Made by a program: the position numbers and the translations under genes. A DNA stretch of 34,406 nucleotides from an uncultured Candidatus Bathyarchaeia archaeon. GTDB lineage: Archaea > Thermoproteota > Bathyarchaeia > Bathyarchaeales > Bathyarchaeaceae. The stretch lies in contig CAYVVO010000012.1 in assembly GCA_964455275.1 (NCBI GenBank), positions 1 to 34,406 of the forward strand. Reading direction: 5' to 3'. This document shows, in pieces, positions 3,823 to 34,406 of this stretch. Position 1 is the stretch's first letter, and each line of letters starts with the position of its first letter. The notes beneath the pieces were generated by a model, which worked only from the letters and a program-made list of their open reading frames with translations, was not told the origin of the DNA and did not search any database.

Positions 3823-5487
3823 TCATTTTTTGTCTGCCTTCATGAAGAAGAAAAGAATCACTCCAATTATGGCGGCTGCGGCTATCACTGCTACAATCAG
3901 TACTATTATGGAGAAGTCTGGTTGCGGAGGCTCTGCCCCCTCGGCTATGGTGAAGTAAACTGTTTCAGACGTTCCAGTTTTTCCATCTGTATCCTCTGCG
4001 TAAAGTGTTATTCTGTGCTCGCCATAAGCTAGGTCGGATAACTTTATGTCTTCAGTGATTGTGACGTTTGCTTGGTCGTCTAGGCTGTATTTTATCCATG
4101 AGGTTGTTTTGCTCACGGTGAATTTTAAGGAAACAGAGTTTACTGTGTATGTCTTGTTTTCTGGTGAATCAATGAAGATGGCGGGGGGGCTTCCATAAGG
4201 CATAAGCGGAAAATTGTCTTGGTTGTTCTGGTTAATAATGTAAGGCGTATCTCCTAATTCGTCGCTGCCTGTCTGGTTTCGGCTCGCTCCGCTCCTCGCA
4301 TCGACACCCGTATAGTCGCTCCAATAATTACCGCCTACAGGATAGCCAACATCCCAGGTGTTTATTGAGACCGCTACAGAATAGTTTTCCCCACTAACAT
4401 CGTAAACCTGTATCTTGTTATCGATAAAATAGTTGCCTCTAATCATGTTATATGAGGACTCCATAAAGCCGATTCCAACGTTGTTGTCTGTTATGTTGTT
4501 TAGCATAATGGTGTTTTGGAGAGAGTTGAAGAGGAAGATGCCATCTGCGCCGTTAGTTATAACATTTGTAGATATGCTGTTAAGGTTTGAAGCGTTACTG
4601 AACTGTATTCCTCTCTCGTTGTCTGTTATGTTGTTTGTACTAATGTAGTTGTCGGAAGACGCAAAGAGTCCTATTCCAGAGTAATTGTCCGTTATCTGAT
4701 TTTCATATAATGTCGACCCTGTTGTGTAAGCCAATAGTATGCCATGCCCATTGCCGGTGAGTTCCAGATGATGGACTGTTATGTTTTTGCAGTTCACGAG
4801 GGCGAGATAACCTACATCTGGAAAAGTGACCGAATTTATGACCAGATTACTTTCGCTAATCAGATAGTAGACTTTTTTGCCGTTGACTGTGTTTGAATTA
4901 TCAATTTCATTATCGAAGTGTGAAGGCTCGTCGCCATAAACCGCGAGATTATAATTATTGTCCATTTTGTTGTCTCTAAGTATATTTTTTGAAGACAAGA
5001 AGATGTTGATACCTATGCCGTTGTTTGTTATGTTGTTTCCAGTAATGGTGTTTTGTGAGGCTTCGTTAAGGTAGAGACCATAATTGTTGTGTGCTAAGGT
5101 GTTTCCAGATATGATGTTTTGTGAAGCGCCCTCAAGGTAGATACCGTAAAAGCTGAATCCTATTTGTAAGTTCTTGATTGTCACGTTGTTTCTGTACGAC
5201 AGGTCTATTCCTCTTTCTCCTTGTCCTGAAAGATAGTAGCCTGCGCCATCAACTACAATGTTATTACGTTGAACTACAAGATAGAAACTGTCAATGTTAT
5301 CTGTGAAGGTGTAGATGTCTCCAGCCTGTTGAATAGGAGCTGTAGTATTTGTTGAAGTGACAATGCTTCCATCACTTAAAATGTAAATGAATCCCTCAAT
5401 ATCTTGTGAGTTAACGGGCTGAGTGTTAACTGCACATAACGAAATTATGGTTAAGACAACTAGAAAAATAACCTTACTTGTGTTCAC
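3823..5487 (-). CDS. secreted right-handed parallel beta-helix (NosD/PbH1-like) repeat protein with C-terminal TM anchor
   Basis: GTG start is preceded by GGGAGAGG. Signal peptide MNTSKVIFLVVLTIISLCAVNT. Many N-x-I-x-x-N beta-helix rungs (NNITNNGIGI, NNITDNERGI, NNITDNNVGI). GNYWSDY...DNFPLMPY module. Tail PQPDFSIIVLIVAVIAAAAIIGVILFFFMKADKK. Confidence 0.85.
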   Translation of the reverse strand: MNTSKVIFLVVLTIISLCAVNTQPVNSQDIEGFIYILSDGSIVTSTNTTAPIQQAGDIYTFTDNIDSFYLVVQRNNIVVDGAGYYLSGQGERGIDLSYRNNVTIKNLQIGFSFYGIYLEGASQNIISGNTLAHNNYGLYLNEASQNTITGNNITNNGIGINIFLSSKNILRDNKMDNNYNLAVYGDEPSHFDNEIDNSNTVNGKKVYYLISESNLVINSVTFPDVGYLALVNCKNITVHHLELTGNGHGILLAYTTGSTLYENQITDNYSGIGLFASSDNYISTNNITDNERGIQFSNASNLNSISTNVITNGADGIFLFNSLQNTIMLNNITDNNVGIGFMESSYNMIRGNYFIDNKIQVYDVSGENYSVAVSINTWDVGYPVGGNYWSDYTGVDARSGASRNQTGSDELGDTPYIINQNNQDNFPLMPYGSPPAIFIDSPENKTYTVNSVSLKFTVSKTTSWIKYSLDDQANVTITEDIKLSDLAYGEHRITLYAEDTDGKTGTSETVYFTIAEGAEPPQPDFSIIVLIVAVIAAAAIIGVILFFFMKADKK

Positions 5488-8658: not shown

Positions 8659-11151
8659 TTATTTTTGTTTTTTGAGTGTCATGTAGGCTATTAGACCTAT
8701 GACCACGCCGACGGCTGCGATTATCAGTATGACTAGGTCGATTGTCAGATATGCTGGTATTTCTGGAATTGATGGGTATGCTGGCATCTGGTTTACGGTT
8801 GTCTGCGCAATCTCTGCTGCGCTGGGAACATCTACTTCTGCTGGCGCTTCGTCTACACCAAATGTGGTTGTTGCCTGTGAGATGCAGTAAGATTTGGAGC
8901 CTTCGAACATTGCAGTGACATGGTATTCGCCGACAACGCTGGGAGCCCACATGTGGCTGAACACGCCATTTTCATCGGTTGTAACGGTGGCTGAGTACCA
9001 TTCTCCATTCGGATCTTGTATTTTTATAAACACTTCGACACCTTCAACTTCATATGTAGTGGGCCACTGCATGTACACGTAATGCATCCAGTCGGTCATG
9101 TTTTCGTCGGCTACTGCTGGAACACCGTTTGGAAATCTTAGTTGCAATGCGATGTCTTTTGTGCCCGGAGATACATCCATTACTGTGCCCTTTATCATTA
9201 CACTGCTTCCGAGTGAAATAACGTCGTTTTGGATTGAAACTGTGGTTGAGCTTGGACCTTTACCTATGGCGTATAAGCGATTATCGTATCCGTTTAATCC
9301 TACTATTGTGCTGTCTCCGATCATTACGTGTCCGCCCCACCAGTTGTTTATCCAGCTAAGCTCCCAGATTTTTGTTCCATTTTCAACATCAAGAACGACT
9401 AATGGACCGCCTCTAGGTATAGGATTAATTGGTGAATGCTCTGAATAGGATAAACAGATTTTTCCATCAGCGAGGAAATGGTATGCGATGTGGAATTTGT
9501 TGCTCCATGTCATTTCAGAGTATTGGTCTAGTACATCATAGGTCCACAAGACTTTTCCAGTTTCAAGGTCGTAGCAAGTTACTATTCCGCTAGCGCGACC
9601 GGTGAAGAATTTTCCATAGCCGTAAGCGGGACCATACCATTTGTCATAGAAGGCTAGGTAGCCTTCTGGTTCAGTTGTCCATTTTAAGTCACCAGTGGTC
9701 AGAGAGAAAGCATGGTATGTTAGAGTCTCTTTTGATGATACTATCATGACATCATTTTCTGGGATAGTGTCTGAGTAAACCAAGGTTGTACCGCTTTCTG
9801 GCAATGTTACAGTTTTCTTGAAAACCATAGTTCCTTCATTTCCCGGAGATACGTCAATTGCCCAATTAGTGACATCTGGAGATGTGCCGCCAAAAATTCC
9901 GCCAGAAGAACTACCAACTATTTTGTCAAATAGATGATATGAACAAGCTGATCCAGGCAGGTCTGTGGGTATATCTATGGTCCATTCGATTCCTGTTGTG
10001 GCGTCGTAAGTGTTTCCTTGTGGTCTCCAGCTGCCCTCATCTGAAACTACTCTACTGGAGTTCCATAATGACAGCGTTCCTGACCTAGTGTTTAAGGTAT
10101 ATCGATAGATTTCGCCTTTAGGTCCATACAGATTATAGCCACCAGGCACGTTTTCCATTGTGTATTCCCATCGTCCTGTCAGTGGGTCATATGCCTTCCA
10201 TGTTCCAGAACCAGCAGCTCCAAAACCTCCGGCACCGCTATCTGTCCATAGGTAGCCGAAAACACCGTGGTAGTTGTATGAGTCCCAAAAGAATGTTTGC
10301 CCAAATTGTAGTCTTTCATTATTCCAGTTTTTGACCCACAGTTCTTCACCAGTTTTTAGATCTACGGCAACAACGTCCTGATCAAGTTCAGGGTTGCTTC
10401 CTTGCCATTCGTATCTGTTGTAGTATAGTACTCCGCTTATTATTACGGAGCCCCTAAATTTTTCTTCGTACGCGTCTCCCATTTCGTATTGAACATTTCC
10501 AAGTTCGACGCTAACTAGTCCTCCTTGTGTGTATGGTTTTGTCCAAAGAACATGTCCGGTTTCGGGTGCATCAGCGTTGCCTGCATGATATTTCGGAATA
10601 GGTGGCATTATATAGGTTCCTGCTGGTCTTAGCCAATCTCCAGAAATTTCTGACCATTCATAGAATTGTGCGTTTATTGGTCGCGTCCAGTATTCTGTTG
10701 GAAGAGAAACACCCGGCCAATAAGGTAGTGATTCTTCTTGCACTACAACTACTAGTTCATCAGTTTCGCTAGCTAACATATTGCCTTGTTCAGGGAAGTG
10801 ACCTTTTACGATGTATTCTCCAACCAGAGTGGGAGTGTAAGGAACTCCAGTTCCTCCAGTGGCATCTGTTGTTATGTCAGAAAGTGTTTCAGTTTGACCG
10901 TCTGGTCTTTGTATGGTTATGCTTAAGCCTTCCCAGCCCATATGCGTGCTGGAGAGTTGTGCTGAAATTCCAACATGGAATAACAGTTGTTCGTTTACTG
11001 GTGCAGGATTAGGTATGGCACCGATATATGGGTAGGTTTTTTTTCCTTGCTGAGCGTTAATAGTCGGAAAAATTGTAAGAATCGACGAAAGCGTTAGAAC
11101 TGTTAGCAAAATAATCATTGAAACTTTGTATCTTTTTCTTAATATTTTCAT
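8659..11151 (-). CDS. secreted PQQ-like beta-propeller repeat protein with Ig-like domains and C-terminal TM anchor
   Basis: Signal peptide MKILRKRYKVSMIILLTVLTLSSILTIFPTINA. Repeated propeller motifs VVAVDLKTGEELW, HAFSLTTGDLKW, TCYDLETGKVLW, LVVLDVENGTKIW, RLYAIGKG. Tail IPEIPAYLTIDLVILIIAAVGVVIGLIAYMTLKKQK. GGAG lies 9 nt before the ATG. Confidence 0.85.
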   Translation of the reverse strand: MKILRKRYKVSMIILLTVLTLSSILTIFPTINAQQGKKTYPYIGAIPNPAPVNEQLLFHVGISAQLSSTHMGWEGLSITIQRPDGQTETLSDITTDATGGTGVPYTPTLVGEYIVKGHFPEQGNMLASETDELVVVVQEESLPYWPGVSLPTEYWTRPINAQFYEWSEISGDWLRPAGTYIMPPIPKYHAGNADAPETGHVLWTKPYTQGGLVSVELGNVQYEMGDAYEEKFRGSVIISGVLYYNRYEWQGSNPELDQDVVAVDLKTGEELWVKNWNNERLQFGQTFFWDSYNYHGVFGYLWTDSGAGGFGAAGSGTWKAYDPLTGRWEYTMENVPGGYNLYGPKGEIYRYTLNTRSGTLSLWNSSRVVSDEGSWRPQGNTYDATTGIEWTIDIPTDLPGSACSYHLFDKIVGSSSGGIFGGTSPDVTNWAIDVSPGNEGTMVFKKTVTLPESGTTLVYSDTIPENDVMIVSSKETLTYHAFSLTTGDLKWTTEPEGYLAFYDKWYGPAYGYGKFFTGRASGIVTCYDLETGKVLWTYDVLDQYSEMTWSNKFHIAYHFLADGKICLSYSEHSPINPIPRGGPLVVLDVENGTKIWELSWINNWWGGHVMIGDSTIVGLNGYDNRLYAIGKGPSSTTVSIQNDVISLGSSVMIKGTVMDVSPGTKDIALQLRFPNGVPAVADENMTDWMHYVYMQWPTTYEVEGVEVFIKIQDPNGEWYSATVTTDENGVFSHMWAPSVVGEYHVTAMFEGSKSYCISQATTTFGVDEAPAEVDVPSAAEIAQTTVNQMPAYPSIPEIPAYLTIDLVILIIAAVGVVIGLIAYMTLKKQK

Positions 11152-11805: not shown

Positions 11806-11868
11806 GTAAAGTTTTCTTGACAAGACTTGGTCAAGGTTTCTTGACTAGATTGGTCAAGTTTTCTTGAC
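11806..11868. promoter_or_regulatory. array of three 16-bp palindromes GTCAAG-N4-CTTGAC, 23-24 bp phasing
   Basis: Units are 11806-11821 GTAAAGTTTTCTTGAC, 11830-11845 GTCAAGGTTTCTTGAC and 11853-11868 GTCAAGTTTTCTTGAC. The proximal unit is 49 nt from the ATG at 11757. Confidence 0.6.
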
Positions 11869-15445: not shown

Positions 15446-15562
15446 GCTTCGTGAGCTGCGGTAAACCTGTTTTCTGGCATCTGTTTGTCGTCTGCCTTTC
15501 TGTGCTGTTAAGCAAAAGGTTAAAGTTCTTCGGTGCAAAAGTCTGTTAGGCGGGGAAGTCAG

Positions 15563-15814
15563 ATGTCTGTCTCAGCTTATGTGTTGGTTACGTTGAATCC
15601 GGGCACCGAGAAGAATATACTCAAAAAAGTTTCTCACTTTGACGAAGTCAAGAGGGTAAGCATGATGTACGGCGAATACGACGCCATCCTCAAAGTACGC
15701 ACCGAAAATCTGGAAGATCTGAACCAGTTCCTAACAGATAAACTGAGGGTACTACCCGACATCTTCCAAACAGCCACCCTAATAGTAGCCAAAACACACT
15801 CAAACAAACGCTAA
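15563..15814 (+). CDS. stand-alone Lrp/AsnC ligand-binding (RAM) domain protein
   Basis: AYVLVTLNPG...VKRVSMMYGEYDAILKVRTENLEDLNQFLTDKLRVLPDI matches the RAM domain pattern. There is no HTH. The ATG at 15563 follows GGGGAAG; the ORF opens at 15533. Confidence 0.7.
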   Translation: MSVSAYVLVTLNPGTEKNILKKVSHFDEVKRVSMMYGEYDAILKVRTENLEDLNQFLTDKLRVLPDIFQTATLIVAKTHSNKR

Positions 15815-16081
15815 CCCACAAGCCTCTTATATGGCGTTATCCCAGAGTTTCCCTCATGGGCTATTCTGCCGTTGCTTTTTGTTGCATCCTTTGCGGCAAT
15901 AGTATGTAAACAGAGATTACTGAGAAAATCAGGCTGATAATTAATTGGTTGATACGGTTCTTTATCTAATGTGCCTTTGTTTGTGCGAGAAGAAAAAGTG
16001 AAAAAGTCTGCATCTCTGCTTGCTCTTTTGACATTAACACTTTTGAATGAAATATCCACAAAAATAATTGCTGCAAAGTTC

Positions 16082-17723: not shown

Positions 17724-19175
17724 CTATGGAGTTGAACGGAATAGCCTCTTTTTTACGATTATTGCAGATAAAGTAGCCATCAAGAATAAGGGCAAGATAA
17801 TCCATGAAGGAAACTCTGGAATTGCATCCGTTCCAATTATTTCTACTGTTTTGATGCGGTGCTGGTAAGTAAAGTATAGGTAGGTGTTGTTTGCTTCTTC
17901 GTTGACTGCTGGAGCTACCGAGGTGCCATCGACCAAAACAGTCCAGTTGCCTTCTGAATGTAACAGGTCTTTTGGTATTGTTACTCTGCAGAATCCTGTT
18001 GTTCCGGTTTCGCCCTCCACATTAAACCGCACTAGAGCAGTTTCAGGGTTGAAACTGAAATCTGAAACAGTTGAGTTACTCATAACATTAACACCATAAC
18101 TAGTCCCTTCCCATGTACCAGCATCAAAGAATGTGATTGGAGCCATGAGTGGGTAATTGTCCCTGTTGTTCTCATTTATGATGTAAGAAGTATCTCCTAT
18201 TCCATCTCCGTCACTGTCGGTTCCGTTGTAATCGCTCCAATAGTTGCCTTCTAGACCGTTATCCCAGAAATTACGGGATAAGCCAGCACCGGCGTTGTGA
18301 GCATTGTTAATAAAATTGTTATGATAGAAAGTGTTGTTGACTGCGCTAGAACTCAAACTCACTCCCATTCCCTCATCAATTTCGGGAATATTATAATTCA
18401 TTATGTAGTTATCATGAAAAACATTGTTAGTGCCATGATAACCAATAGCGATGACAAAAGGACCGCCGTAGTTTTCTCCGTTCATTATGTTTCCTGAAAA
18501 CGTATTATGAGAACTCGTATCCCCAGAACTGGTCATTGAGAAGCCAAGACACGTATTGTTATGTATCACATTTGAATTTGAAAACCGTAAATAGATATAC
18601 TCGTTAAGGACGGTGTTTCCGACAATAGTATTGAATGAAGAGTTCCTTAAACTAAATCTGTAATTTACTTTATTTTTGTTGATGTTGTTATTCGAACCAA
18701 TCAGCGTTATGCCTTTTGTTATGGTACAATTGATTATTTGAGTTCCGTTTCCCATCACGAGAATTATCCCACCGGGTTTAGGCGCAAGTGTGAGATTCGT
18801 TAGTTTGATATTGTTGGCATTGATTTCGATGGCATTTGCATAACTATAGAATGCTTGCATAGTTATCCATGTGACATTGTATGCTGGATGTAGGTTAATT
18901 ATTGTGTTTTCGGGGTTTTCGCCTATAATTGAGATTGTTTTGTTGATAAGTATGGTTTGATTTATAGGGCCTTCATAGATTCCGTTTCTAACGAAAATAG
19001 TATCGCCATCCTCAATAACTCGAATAGCTTCTTGAATAGAAGAATAATCGTCTGGAACAATAAGGGTCTTAGCTTCTGCTTTTGCAGTAAAGTTTTGTGA
19101 AATAGATGCCAGAATAAAGGAAAGAACCAGCAATAACACAATTATTGCTTTGGTTTTCTTTATATTAGAAAGCAT
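17724..19175 (-). CDS. secreted parallel beta-helix (NosD-like) repeat protein with PEF-type C-terminal anchor
   Basis: Signal peptide MLSNIKKTKAIIVLLLVLSFILASISQNFTAKA. SIQEAIRVIEDGDTIFVRNGIY. Beta-helix rungs. GNYWSDYNGTDSDGDGIGDTSYIINENNRDNYPLM. Tail IPEFPSWIILPLFLMATLSAIIVKKRLFRSTP. Paralogous to 3823..5487. Confidence 0.85.
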   Translation of the reverse strand: MLSNIKKTKAIIVLLLVLSFILASISQNFTAKAEAKTLIVPDDYSSIQEAIRVIEDGDTIFVRNGIYEGPINQTILINKTISIIGENPENTIINLHPAYNVTWITMQAFYSYANAIEINANNIKLTNLTLAPKPGGIILVMGNGTQIINCTITKGITLIGSNNNINKNKVNYRFSLRNSSFNTIVGNTVLNEYIYLRFSNSNVIHNNTCLGFSMTSSGDTSSHNTFSGNIMNGENYGGPFVIAIGYHGTNNVFHDNYIMNYNIPEIDEGMGVSLSSSAVNNTFYHNNFINNAHNAGAGLSRNFWDNGLEGNYWSDYNGTDSDGDGIGDTSYIINENNRDNYPLMAPITFFDAGTWEGTSYGVNVMSNSTVSDFSFNPETALVRFNVEGETGTTGFCRVTIPKDLLHSEGNWTVLVDGTSVAPAVNEEANNTYLYFTYQHRIKTVEIIGTDAIPEFPSWIILPLFLMATLSAIIVKKRLFRSTP

Positions 19176-19216: not shown

Positions 19217-19256
19217 GTCAAATTTTCTTGACTAAATTTTGTCAAGATTTTTTGAC
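19217..19256. promoter_or_regulatory. array of two 16-bp palindromes of the same GTCAAG-N4-CTTGAC family, 24 bp phasing
   Basis: Units are 19217-19232 GTCAAATTTTCTTGAC and 19241-19256 GTCAAGATTTTTTGAC. The proximal unit is 42 nt from the ATG at 19175. A TATA-like TTATAT lies between them. Confidence 0.6.
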
Positions 19257-22156: not shown

Positions 22157-22563
22157 TTTTTTGTTTTTCTGCACGGCTTTGATCTCCGTGCCATCTCTTT
22201 CTGTCCTTCCCTTAGGACTAGGTGGTGACACACCCCCGAAACAGTCAGCCTCGGCTTAACTGCCCATCGAAATTAATGGTCGATGGAAGAGGAAAAAATA
22301 TCAAATTTTAACTGTGAGTAATGCTTTTTTTCACATCCCCCACTTCAAACAAATGTAGATTTAATAGGTTAATATTTTTGACAATAAAAGTGTAAAAAAC
22401 ATAAATTGTTGAAATATTTGTTTTGTATTCGTTTAAGCTTTTGAATTAACAACAGAATTGCACTTAACTAGTCAAAAAAATAAGTATAACAAATGAACAA
22501 CGCATCAAATTATTCAGATTCTTTTGGACAGAGTTTTTTGAGCAGTCTCTATTTGTTGATTAT

Positions 22564-22692
22564 TTATATCACGGTTGTGGTAATGAGAAGTGGAAGAATT
22601 GCATCCCAAGACGGAAATTCTGGAATAGAATCAATGTTTTGTTCATCCTTATGATAGAAAAATGAGGAAAGTAATGATTCAGTCTCATCACA
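22564..22692 (-). pseudogene. orphan remnant of a PEF-type C-terminal sorting tail (no start codon)
   Basis: The minus-strand frame reads CDETESLLSSFFYHKDEQNIDSIPEFPSWDAILPLLITTTVI*. It is bounded upstream by TGA and has no Met. IPEFPSW..ILPL matches the tail of the 17724..19175 protein. Confidence 0.4.
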
Positions 22693-31826: not shown

Positions 31827-32939
31827 CTAACCTTCTATGAGTTGATACCATATTTCGAGGCTTTTCAGATCTGGGGAAATTTTACTTTTGGTTATGGTTA
31901 CAGGTTTTCCGGTTTTTATAGCTAAGGCACAGCTAACGGCGCTTGTCAATGGGCACCCAACGGAGTGAATGGTTTTCAGGTTCTGGTTTTTGGAGTAAAG
32001 ATGGCTGTAGACTGAATCAGTAATTTTCACATAAACGACTTCTTTTTCAGCTTTTATCTCAAAGTTGCCAGCTAACTCCAAGTTATTTACTATAACCGTG
32101 GGTAGCCCCTCATAAAAGCTCTCTTGGTCGATCTTTGTGAAATCAGTTCTTAATTCTTTTTCAAACAGGTTTACGAGACCGGAGCCTGGAGGTGTAATGC
32201 ATATTCCTTGAGGGTTTTTAACCATAAATTGTTTTTTTGCCATTTCTTCGATGGCAGGTATGGTCATGGACTCTTTGGCTGAAATGAAAAGAATCATTTC
32301 TTTTAGGCCTGCTAGATGTTCTGGAAGATATGTGTCCTTCGGGTATGGAGGTATGTATACAGGGTTTCCTTTGTAGTTCAGATCATCGATTATTCTATCG
32401 AGTGTGGTGTAGGGTGACATGGCGGTGGCACCTAGAATTGTGCTTCTTACGAATTTGGTTGACCTGACGAAAAGGAAAAGGACTCCCCAGAATGTCAGAC
32501 CTAATCCCATAAAAGCAAGAATCGTTGATGAGGTCACGACGGAAGCAACGAGTAGCAGTGCTCCGGCGATAAGAAGGGCTATTCCGATTTTATTAGAGGG
32601 AATCTTATTGGAGCTCAGCAGTTCATGTTTCAGCAGCTCGTTTTCTCTTCGCAAATCTTCTAGAGTTTTTGCAGAAGGTGCAGAAGGAGCGGAAACGGTT
32701 GAAACATGATGGACGCGTTTCATGGGTATTTCAAGAAGGATTAGAGCAACTATTGATGTTGTGTAAAGCACCACGTTAGGAATGGAGGACTGTATGGACT
32801 CAACAAAGGTTTTGTTCCAAACGCTCATCTCGTAAATGTGTGCCCAAAAAAAGGACCACAACGCTGCGAACAGAAAGAAAAGCTGGAACAATCTAACCAT
32901 GTTGGCGGTGCTTATTCGATAAAAGTTTTGATTCAACAA
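31827..32939 (-). CDS. multi-pass membrane protein with about 200-aa C-terminal soluble domain, unknown function
   Basis: Four predicted TM helices, a short charged coiled linker (LEDLRRENELLKHELL), and a soluble C-terminus. TTG at 32939; alternative ATG at 32900. Confidence 0.6.
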   Translation of the reverse strand: MLNQNFYRISTANMVRLFQLFFLFAALWSFFWAHIYEMSVWNKTFVESIQSSIPNVVLYTTSIVALILLEIPMKRVHHVSTVSAPSAPSAKTLEDLRRENELLKHELLSSNKIPSNKIGIALLIAGALLLVASVVTSSTILAFMGLGLTFWGVLFLFVRSTKFVRSTILGATAMSPYTTLDRIIDDLNYKGNPVYIPPYPKDTYLPEHLAGLKEMILFISAKESMTIPAIEEMAKKQFMVKNPQGICITPPGSGLVNLFEKELRTDFTKIDQESFYEGLPTVIVNNLELAGNFEIKAEKEVVYVKITDSVYSHLYSKNQNLKTIHSVGCPLTSAVSCALAIKTGKPVTITKSKISPDLKSLEIWYQLIEG

Positions 32940-33216: not shown

Positions 33217-33669
33217 TTACTTGCGTTTTCTTCTTTTAACCGTGAAAAGTCCAACGGCTAACAACATAGCTATTATAGCGCCAGCTGTTCCCACTAACGG
33301 AATCTCGGGGATAACATGAACAGTGAAGTGCACCCTGAAAGTGGCACTGAACTCATTTCCATCGAGGTCTACGCTAACTTTGTATTCTCCGATCACACTT
33401 GAATCCGCACCTGAGAAGTCGTCTGGATACGTTACAGAAACTGGGCTGCCTGCTGAAACTGTTATACTTTTGCTGTATGAGCCTCCAGGAGCATCCACAG
33501 TTATTATCCCGCTGGCGTCTTCATCGCATGTTACGGTTATTACTGTTGATTCTCCAGGGATTATTTTATTTGGAGCAGTTGTGACAGTGACAGACGCAGC
33601 TTGAACCATGCTTACCATTAGAAAGGAAACTAAGAATAGTGTAGTTAGGGGTAATAATATTTTTTTCAT
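33217..33669 (-). CDS. small secreted Ig-like/beta-sandwich protein with PEIP-type C-terminal anchor
   Basis: Signal peptide MKKILLPLTTLFLVSFLMVSMVQA. Tail IPEIPLVGTAGAIIAMLLAVGLFTVKRRKRK. Confidence 0.75.
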   Translation of the reverse strand: MKKILLPLTTLFLVSFLMVSMVQAASVTVTTAPNKIIPGESTVITVTCDEDASGIITVDAPGGSYSKSITVSAGSPVSVTYPDDFSGADSSVIGEYKVSVDLDGNEFSATFRVHFTVHVIPEIPLVGTAGAIIAMLLAVGLFTVKRRKRK

Positions 33670-33871: not shown

Positions 33872-34406
33872 TTATGAGCGCTTCCAAACAAGTTGCGGCT
33901 CATCATTCATATTCACGATGTCTATTTCGGCAAGCCCATTTTCTTGCAAATGATTTAACATACGAACTAACTCGTCTAAATCAGCGGGTTTGCCTGTGGC
34001 ATGTTCAAGAGCGTGAGCAATTTCTTTAGTTGTTGCTCCGGTTCCTTCATTTAACTCTTTTACAGTCTGGTACAACAGCTTTTCACTTGGCGAAACAAGT
34101 TTCTCAAATATCTTTAGGTTTTCGTTTTTTTTCCGCCATTTTCGTGTGTATTGAGTAGTTCCGGTAATAATTATAAAAAGTGTTGTTACACCAAGCAGGG
34201 ACTGCTGGAGAGGAACACTTAAAGAAAAAAGAGACTGCTCTTTTAGCGGTTCCCAATACGCTGAAATCGATTGTGCAAATGTTAGCAAGTTTTCTTCATG
34301 CATAGGGTACGCCGTTGAGTTTGCTGCCAGAATTATAAGCGTAATTCTAACAAATTTTTGTTCAACTGTGATGCCAGTGTTAAACAAAGCCTTTTCGTAC
34401 CAGTAG
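33872..34406 (-). CDS. membrane-associated protein with C-terminal winged-helix-like domain (5' end may lie outside the window)
   Basis: The frame stays open to the window edge. It has a TM segment LLGVTTLFIIITGTT, a basic stop-transfer RKWRKK, then LLYQTVKELNEGTGATTKEIAHAL...LNHLQENGLAEI, typical of a wHTH. Confidence 0.55.
   Translation of the reverse strand, partial: YWYEKALFNTGITVEQKFVRITLIILAANSTAYPMHEENLLTFAQSISAYWEPLKEQSLFSLSVPLQQSLLGVTTLFIIITGTTQYTRKWRKKNENLKIFEKLVSPSEKLLYQTVKELNEGTGATTKEIAHALEHATGKPADLDELVRMLNHLQENGLAEIDIVNMNDEPQLVWKRS

Follow-up and report, generated by a model that had tools for sequence, protein, structure and literature searches.

The locus described here raises the question of whether the C termini of four secreted archaeal proteins act as signals for a protein-sorting machinery, and, if so, which enzymes would read them. 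The locus is a 34,406-nucleotide stretch of DNA from an uncultured Candidatus Bathyarchaeia archaeon (GenBank assembly GCA_964455275.1, contig CAYVVO010000012.1; hereafter the window), which constitutes an entire contig (C12) of a metagenome-assembled genome (MAG; 1.39 Mb, 321 contigs, 58% complete) from the genus Candidatus Bathyarchaeum, a genus for which one closed genome, that of B. tardum M17C, is available. The Bathyarchaeia, a globally abundant and barely cultured class, rank among the most common archaea of anoxic sediments, and, to our knowledge, next to nothing has been learned about the construction of their cell surface. An initial annotation of the window had proposed that proteins P0002, P0003, P0004, and P0005 share C-terminal tails consisting of an IPE[FI]P or PDF motif, a transmembrane (TM) helix, and a basic cluster, and that these tails are archaeosortase-type sorting signals. 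In the established model of the exosortase/archaeosortase family, the signal is tripartite with its motif abutting the helix, the enzyme has a Cys/Arg/His triad, and cleavage and lipidation of the cargo are ArtA-dependent (bioRxiv 10.1101/2023.06.07.544157). The core idea of the proposal is supported, because the genome encodes enzymes of this family, the tails occur on at least 16 unrelated protein families, and tails and enzymes co-occur across Bathyarchaeia. We consider it likely that there are three separate sorting systems, each comprising a polytopic Cys-Arg-His enzyme and its own C-terminal tripartite signal, and that the tails of P0002 and P0004 are signals of two different classes.

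Translation confirmed that the four tail peptides are encoded on the minus strand where they had been reported, each running into a stop codon, and the host folds are also as claimed: P0002 and P0005 are NosD/β-helix proteins, P0003 is a PQQ_2 propeller with immunoglobulin-like (Ig-like) domains, and P0004 is small, with weak Ig-like matches. We then considered the tails in the context of the whole genome. When open reading frames (ORFs) were called across the assembly, 109 were found to end in a hydrophobic run and, after it, two or more Lys or Arg residues. The tripeptide [IV]PE directly abuts the hydrophobic run in 25 of these, compared with 0.07 expected from its frequency in the proteome (binomial p ~1e-56). 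A hidden Markov model (HMM; A2) trained on 30 tails from this genome matched 38 of its ORFs with 27 bits or more, always 25 residues or fewer from the C terminus, and the next-best match scored ~16 bits. The 38 host proteins, of which 31 have a signal peptide, fall into at least 16 clusters unrelated by BLAST and contain at least seven types of Pfam domain (Kelch, NosD, PQQ_2, S9-type esterase, Metallophos, Oxidored_molyb, and InlB-B repeats), many hosts having no Pfam match. This combination of unrelated secreted hosts and a clean split in HMM score indicates the signature of a sorting signal rather than shared descent. Further, the Pro and Glu are invariant in the tail alignment and the Ile is at least 90% conserved while the sequence of the helix drifts, as one would expect for a motif that is recognized.

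The HMM-positive tails of the genome fall into three classes. Class A (IPEF[PSA]SW...) accounts for 28 genes and seven orphan or decayed fragments in the MAG and for ~30-40 genes per complete genome; class B (IPE[GS]LxFGVMVLLSS...RKR) is found on nine genes from at least three unrelated families; and class C ([IV]PE[IVY]P.(V)G[TS]...) is represented in this genome by the pair P0004 and C135_3041 (IPE[IV]P..G[TS]). The characteristics of a tripartite signal listed by Haft, namely a position at the extreme C terminus, many copies, a motif abutting the TM helix, and a basic cluster, are found in classes A, B, and C, as are occurrence on unrelated secreted proteins and co-occurrence or adjacency with a cognate enzyme; P0005, a singleton, lacks this profile, and P0003 is ambiguous. 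When the window tails were scored with the HMM in leave-one-out fashion, P0002 reached 51.7 bits (E 4e-15), making it a solid member of class A as judged from its sequence, whereas P0004, P0003, and P0005 reached 4.6, 0.4, and 0.5 bits. These scores contradict the single class that the initial annotation had envisaged. It is true that an acidic residue ahead of the TM helix and a basic end are common to all four tails and that IPE is common to three, but the proposal that all four form one class read by a single archaeosortase encoded elsewhere is also at odds with the uniqueness of PQPDF in the genome, with the association of the P0004 tail with its own exosortase, and with the presence of at least three enzymes in the genome, and we regard it as scarcely credible. 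Thus, the description as tripartite exosortase/archaeosortase signals stands for P0002 and P0004, albeit as two classes with different enzymes, fails for P0005, and is ambiguous for P0003.

A genome-wide search for an archaeosortase, which the initial annotation had suggested, was carried out and revealed two family genes, type 1 (contig C183, 366 amino acids) and type 2 (contig C223, 367 amino acids), in addition to the 3′ end of a third, type-3 exosortase gene in the window itself. The two are 38% identical to each other and score 49.5 (type 1) and 47.8 bits (type 2) with TIGR04178 (cut-off 23) and 56.2 and 37.6 bits with PF09721 (cut-off 25.7). They have 6-9 hydrophobic segments; Cys243, Arg288, and His308 are invariant across 24 Bathyarchaeal sequences, and types 1 and 2 are each monophyletic with 100/100 support in a tree. 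All three types show the hallmarks of the exosortase/archaeosortase superfamily, that is, matches to its signature models and the Cys, Arg, and His residues in a polytopic membrane protein. The B. tardum enzyme carries the GenBank name "exosortase/archaeosortase family protein", and a PDB sequence search with the type-1 sortase retrieved no relative of solved structure.

The pairing of class B with type 2 is apparent from both co-occurrence and gene order. Of 14 genomes from the genus, nine encode the type-2 enzyme, which in one of them (G160) has diverged and lies in pieces at contig ends; class B tails are present in 9/9 of these and in 0/5 of the remainder (p 5e-4). Class B genes lie 0.2-6 kb from the type-2 gene in at least five genomes, the proximity being seen in G151, G158, G159, G160, the contig L028, and CAZUDX01, and this adjacency independently supports the link. 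In the last of these (L032:2941-6908, CAZUDX010000001.1), a GT2 glycosyltransferase gene is followed by a translationally adjacent type-2 gene and, 140 nt further on, by two convergent class B genes. We note separately that a GT2 gene adjoins the type-2 sortase in 4/9 loci, and that L028 (DATGZD010000012.1), which carries a Bathyarchaeum-type type-2 archaeosortase and an adjoining class B tail gene, is labeled Candidatus Sulfotelmatobacter (Acidobacteriota); this contig is probably mis-binned.

For class C, the enzyme would be encoded next to its cargo. The window had been described as having no archaeosortase-like gene, which holds only for the catalytic domain; the truncated ORF at its right-hand end, by contrast, encodes the C-terminal 175 residues of an exosortase-family protein and is 80% identical (E 1e-98) to residues 504-678 of a full-length homologue (L085:4161-6200). 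The full-length homologue scores 118.9 bits with PF09721 and 64.6 bits with TIGR04178 and contains Cys215, Arg260, and His281 as well as a CxxC..CxxC ribbon at 318-340. A P0004 homologue is located directly downstream of the 679-amino acid exosortase, or of its C-terminal fragment, in 7/7 metagenome contigs, and a DUF7982 gene lies directly downstream of the P0004 homologue wherever the contig reaches that far (L085, L086, L088, L089, L091, L092, and L093). Since the window contains the exosortase fragment, P0004, and a DUF7982 ORF, it holds the same cassette, with the catalytic domain removed by the contig end. The tail itself is retained in 11 P0004 homologues (52-81% identity), which keep [IV]P[ED][IF]P, VGTAGA..AML, and a basic cluster (KRRR). 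Class C tails are carried by three mutually unrelated neighbors of the type-3 exosortase, the other two being a protein of 169-179 amino acids (NNTIPEYPFGT..KKNRVKK), which is matched by C135_3041 of this genome (NNNIPEVPFGS..), and a 302-amino acid protein (SHVIPEVPLGT..). The type-3 family has more than 500 members of a uniform length of ~680 amino acids, and those with an organism name are all from Bathyarchaeota or Thermoproteota; in two genomes the gene is beside a Wzx-type flippase and sugar-modifying genes, i.e. in a glycan-synthesis neighborhood. Taken at the level of sequence and gene order, class C appears to go with the type-3 exosortase directly upstream of P0004.

Class A most likely pairs, by exclusion, with the type-1 archaeosortase. 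In the closed B. tardum genome, the 20 highest-scoring tails all belong to class A and read IPEF[PSAT]SW..., one of them (IIGTDAIPEFPSW) being a close counterpart of the P0002 tail, and a search with an archaeosortase profile (A1) found one archaeosortase, which is of type 1. As side observations, class A cargo genes of B. tardum (CP122380) are arranged in tandem arrays at ~324-331 kb and 1331-1336 kb, with six tails in 7 kb and four tails in 4 kb, and at most of its loci type 1 has MsrB as a neighbor, and at 4/10 it faces a convergent GT2 gene of ~490 amino acids (L001 being contig C183 of this genome).

Table 1. Coordinates of the features discussed. Positions refer to the window unless a contig of the same MAG is named.
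Feature	Position	Strand	Description
P0002	17724-19175	-	Secreted NosD/right-handed β-helix protein, predicted class A cargo; Pfam NosD 31.6 bits; N-terminal signal peptide
P0002 tail	17724..17822 (with stop codon)	-	Class A: IPEFPSW, TM helix, KKRLFR
P0004	33217-33669	-	150-amino acid secreted protein; dedicated neighbor of the type-3 exosortase
P0004 tail	33217..33312 (with stop codon)	-	Class C: HVIPEIP-LVGTAGA...-KRRKRK (HVIPEIPLVGTAGA...)
Type-3 exosortase, 3′ end	33872..34405	-	Last 175 codons of a 679-amino acid XrtA-like gene, cut by the contig end; TM helix and cytoplasmic domain
DUF7982-type membrane protein	31827..32939	-	75% identity to the DUF7982 protein of L085; downstream partner of the exosortase/P0004 cassette
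P0003	8659-11151	-	PQQ_2 β-propeller and Ig-like domains
P0003 tail	8659..8769	-	IPEIP, PAYLTID, TM helix with GxxxG, KKQK
P0005	3823-5487	-	NosD-type β-helix
P0005 tail	3823..3927	-	PQPDF, TM helix, KADKK; probable plain C-terminal anchor
Orphan intact class A tail	15815..15937	+	GVIPEFPSWAILPLLFVASFAAIVCKQRLLRK; 51.6 bits; 40-codon open frame without a start
Decayed class A tail	22534..22692	-	Ends in DSIPEFPSWDAILPLLITTTVI and a stop; 27.8 bits; internal stops; in a gene-free gap
Other orphan or decayed class A tails	C18:2827-2988, C253:9832-10014, C130:3085-3186, C216:2250-2420, C168:2131-2232		Elsewhere in this genome

We wanted to know how far tails and enzymes track each other beyond the genus, and we therefore surveyed 150 Bathyarchaeia genomes, each at least 80% complete, scoring a strong sortase orthologue at E < 1e-50 and the presence of tails at E <= 1e-3. 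A strong orthologue was found in 25 genomes, and tails were detected in 22 of these 25 compared with 20 of the 125 others (Fisher p 5e-12), where they are mostly single weak matches. Within the order, tails occur in 21/24 genomes with a sortase and 4/15 without (p 3e-4), and within one other genus in 4/4 and 0/3, respectively. The number of tails per genome is 29-47 in the genus of the window and 1-8 in other genera.

Beyond the architecture, enzyme family, catalytic residues, co-occurrence, and adjacency observed here, we infer cleavage, a cleavage site, and an acceptor as follows. The cargo would be exported via Sec by its N-terminal signal peptide, and the C-terminal helix would then hold it in the membrane, the basic cluster facing the cytoplasm. 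The enzyme, a putative Cys-Arg-His endopeptidase/transpeptidase, would recognize the motif together with the helix at the outer membrane face, cut there, and remove the helix, and the new C terminus would be passed to a lipid or another surface acceptor. The analogy is with ArtA of Haloferax volcanii, the only archaeal case with experiments, in which the helix is removed and a prenyl lipid is attached (bioRxiv 10.1101/2023.06.07.544157).

The distribution of tail fragments brings in a different explanation. The MAG contains seven class A tails that are orphaned or decayed. The intact one in the window comes immediately behind a small Lrp/AsnC-like ORF (15533-15814), whose stop codon is in the same frame, and synteny with the three closest genomes (G154, G144, and G132) ends at ~15828, where this tail begins. 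The end of synteny marks the orphan tail as sitting on a rearrangement breakpoint, and, judged from the sequence, it is best described as a relic there; we also considered that it is a stand-alone mini-gene and rejected this because it has no start codon and synteny stops at its start. Further, the DNA encoding the tail matches that of many other tails with 75-94% identity over 33-96 nt, and the portion coding for IPEFPSW reaches up to 94% over 33-50 nt, so that the tails may provide brief stretches of homology at which surface-protein genes recombine. All tails could accordingly be ordinary, uncleaved type-I anchors, the [IV]PE, helix, and basic cluster being a 3′ cassette spread by recombination and the enzymes acting on something else. 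The orphan and decayed tails, one of them exactly at a synteny breakpoint, and the shared tail DNA are what such spread would leave behind. However, recombination alone leaves unexplained that each class tracks, and adjoins, its own enzyme clade; that tails vanish in same-genus genomes without the enzyme; and that the Pro and Glu are invariant while the helix drifts. We therefore consider uncleaved anchors an unlikely account of the tails as a whole.

If the tails are cleaved, the protease could in principle belong to another intramembrane family, rhomboid/rhombosortase-like or CPBP/myxosortase-like, as such enzymes process other tripartite signals (bioRxiv 10.1101/2023.06.07.544157). Yet myxosortase-type signals each have an invariant Cys according to the same source, and the tails described here have no such invariant residue; moreover, class-specific co-occurrence and adjacency point to genes of the exosortase family. 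A protease of another kind is thus very improbable.

Several observations weigh against three exosortase-family sorting systems and should be set beside the evidence given above. First, three genomes have a sortase and no tails, and two (G058 and G108) have three good tails each and no detected enzyme. Second, the co-occurrence is partly phylogenetic, and the 9/9 versus 0/5 distribution of class B could reflect very few gains or losses. Third, the assignment of class A to type 1 rests on exclusion and is less secure than the other two pairings; the A1 profile detects type-3 enzymes weakly, and B. tardum could also have one. Fourth, the remainder of the type-3 gene, with its catalytic part, is absent from this 58%-complete assembly. 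Fifth, curated models miss the system: the PEF-CTERM cut-off is reached by one tail of the genome and by none in the window, and the enzymes are far below the cut-offs of thaumarchaeosortase, archaeosortase C (ArtC), and XrtA. Finally, literature searches returned no data on C-terminal processing or re-anchoring in Bathyarchaeia.

How the three proposed systems relate to catalogued ones was assessed with the named models. The initial annotation had pointed to the PEF-CTERM, PEFG-CTERM, and PGF-CTERM classes, and none of these models lends support to any of the four window tails. Closest in appearance is PEF-CTERM (TIGR03024) with archaeosortase C (TIGR03762) of Euryarchaeota, which has the same P-E-F abutting the TM helix, basic cluster, many unrelated secreted hosts, and Cys/Arg/His enzyme. 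With TIGR03024 (cut-off 23), a class A tail from outside the window reaches 23.6 bits and four further tails score 17-20 bits, and the window tails have no match; the enzymes score 36.5 (type 1) and 42.3 bits (type 2) against an archaeosortase C cut-off of 100. The system here differs in its extended motif, IPEFPSW, and in belonging to Bathyarchaeia instead of methanogens or Archaeoglobi. The best named model for both enzymes is thaumarchaeosortase (TIGR04297), with 103.4 bits for type 1 and 79.3 bits for type 2, below the cut-off of 250. PEFG-CTERM (TIGR04296) of Nitrososphaeria, a sister class in the same phylum, is the reputed signal of that enzyme; its signature is similarly P-E-F-like, and the best tail of the present genome scores 16.6 bits with it (cut-off 25). 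Unlike that system, the one described here has two paralogous enzymes with two distinct tail flavors. ArtA and PGF-CTERM belong to the same enzyme superfamily and follow the same tripartite logic, and provide the model for the mechanism proposed above, but the motif here is IPE, not PGF, the stretch preceding it is only mildly enriched in Ser/Thr (17% vs 13% in the proteome), and ArtA (TIGR04125) has no match at E <= 1 in this 58%-complete genome.

Type 3 finds its best named match in XrtA of the bacterial XrtA/PEP-CTERM system (TIGR03109, TIGR02602, and TIGR02595), with 92.2 bits for XrtA and 77.6 bits for 8TM_EpsH. P-E in the signature and the glycan-synthesis neighborhood are shared features, whereas the XrtA score is below the cut-off of 208, the host is an archaeon, and the type-3 cargo genes are small and directly adjacent to the enzyme gene; the P0004 tail reaches 14.8 bits with PEP-CTERM (TIGR02595, cut-off 16). 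Type 3 further differs from XrtA in carrying a Zn ribbon, an outer domain, one additional TM helix, and a domain in the cytoplasm with the order helix-helix-helix-strand-strand. Loki-CTERM (NF033507, cut-off 19.9) gives 14.7 bits for the P0002 tail and 17.1 bits for the highest-scoring tail of the genome, and the LPXTG and PEP-CTERM models gave scores below their cut-offs for the tails and the genome. Because all three enzymes and nearly all tails fall below every named NCBIfam subfamily cut-off, we conclude that they are uncatalogued members of the known exosortase/archaeosortase paradigm.

The two remaining window tails appear to be of another kind. P0003 has nine paralogues in the MAG, among which the tail is 91% identical compared with 46% for the adjacent ectodomain. 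Across 120 database homologues, the stretch from PAYLTID through the helix to RKQK contains GxxxG and in most cases has a length of exactly 32 residues; this fixed length, together with conservation far above that of the ectodomain, suggests that the helix stays in place and interacts. The P0003 tail is thus probably a permanent, family-specific, hyperconserved anchor. The alternative is that this tail, consisting of P-E-I-PAYLTID, a GxxxG helix, and RKQK, is also a sorting signal, either as a relative of class C read by type 3 or as a fourth class. P[ED] is found two residues ahead of PAY in 92/110 homologues, the IPEIP is identical to the P0004 motif, every genome with the P0003-type family also has sortases, and the closest relatives have 7-15 copies per genome. 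On the other hand, 18/110 homologues lack the Pro-Glu yet keep the remaining tail, the conserved helix and RKQK end of fixed length fit a retained, interacting helix, an Asp is present in the first turn after the motif, and the tail neither matches the tail HMM nor was seen adjacent to a sortase in this analysis. A sorting role for P0003 is therefore doubtful, although less so than the other alternatives considered here. Strict P0003-type tails are confined to the closest relatives and diverged ones are spread across the whole genus, also where the type-2 enzyme is missing; we rejected an association of this tail type with the type-2 sortase, as diverged versions occur in genomes with type 1 only. 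Independently of these considerations, we note that the fixed 32-residue end PAYLTIDLVILIIAAVGVVIGLIAYMALRKQK (window 8659-8757) is common to ~1,770 database homologues of the PQQ-propeller family and is far more conserved than the ectodomain. As for P0005, the 109 tails of the genome that have a C-terminal TM helix include no second one of the PQPDF type, and the P0005 tail has no match to curated sorting-domain models; from its sequence, it would seem to be a plain, one-off membrane anchor.

The three uncatalogued sortase/signal pairs defined here would allow new annotation HMMs and provide a rule by which covalently sorted surface proteins can be predicted, at ~30-50 proteins per genome. 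The predicted set includes Kelch and PQQ propellers, β-helix proteins, an esterase, a phosphoesterase, and a molybdoenzyme, and most cargo proteins that we saw are named only "hypothetical protein" or by a generic family. A literature search found no paper linking an archaeosortase with Bathyarchaeia and none with the word thaumarchaeosortase. The prediction would be testable in B. tardum, which has a closed genome and grows in an enrichment culture with a visible S-layer and sheath, the description of which does not mention sortases (PMC10477458).

Structure prediction was of limited use for these proteins. The AlphaFold model of one class B cargo protein had a predicted local distance difference test (pLDDT) score of 55 and was not used for a fold search. 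That of the exosortase fragment in the window has a pLDDT of 56 overall and 57-80 in the cytoplasmic part, i.e. low confidence, and its secondary-structure order alone was used, without a fold search. The order helix-helix-helix-strand-strand in this model is compatible with a winged helix, and the cytoplasmic end has no Pfam family match. A far-reaching idea, which we think quite improbable, is that the cytoplasmic Zn ribbon and the membrane-tethered, winged helix-like domain of type 3 are a candidate regulator that reads the palindrome GTCAAG-N4-CTTGAC, such that one protein would both process cargo and tune a surface-protein regulon. In a milder version, each of three orthogonal sortase/signal pairs might send its cargo to a different layer of the Bathyarchaeum envelope (membrane, S-layer, or outer sheath). 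No copy of the palindrome was found near the P0004/exosortase cassette. Two 16-bp copies are located at 19217-19256, upstream of the P0002 gene, and further copies at 11806-11868, upstream of the transcription unit containing P0003.

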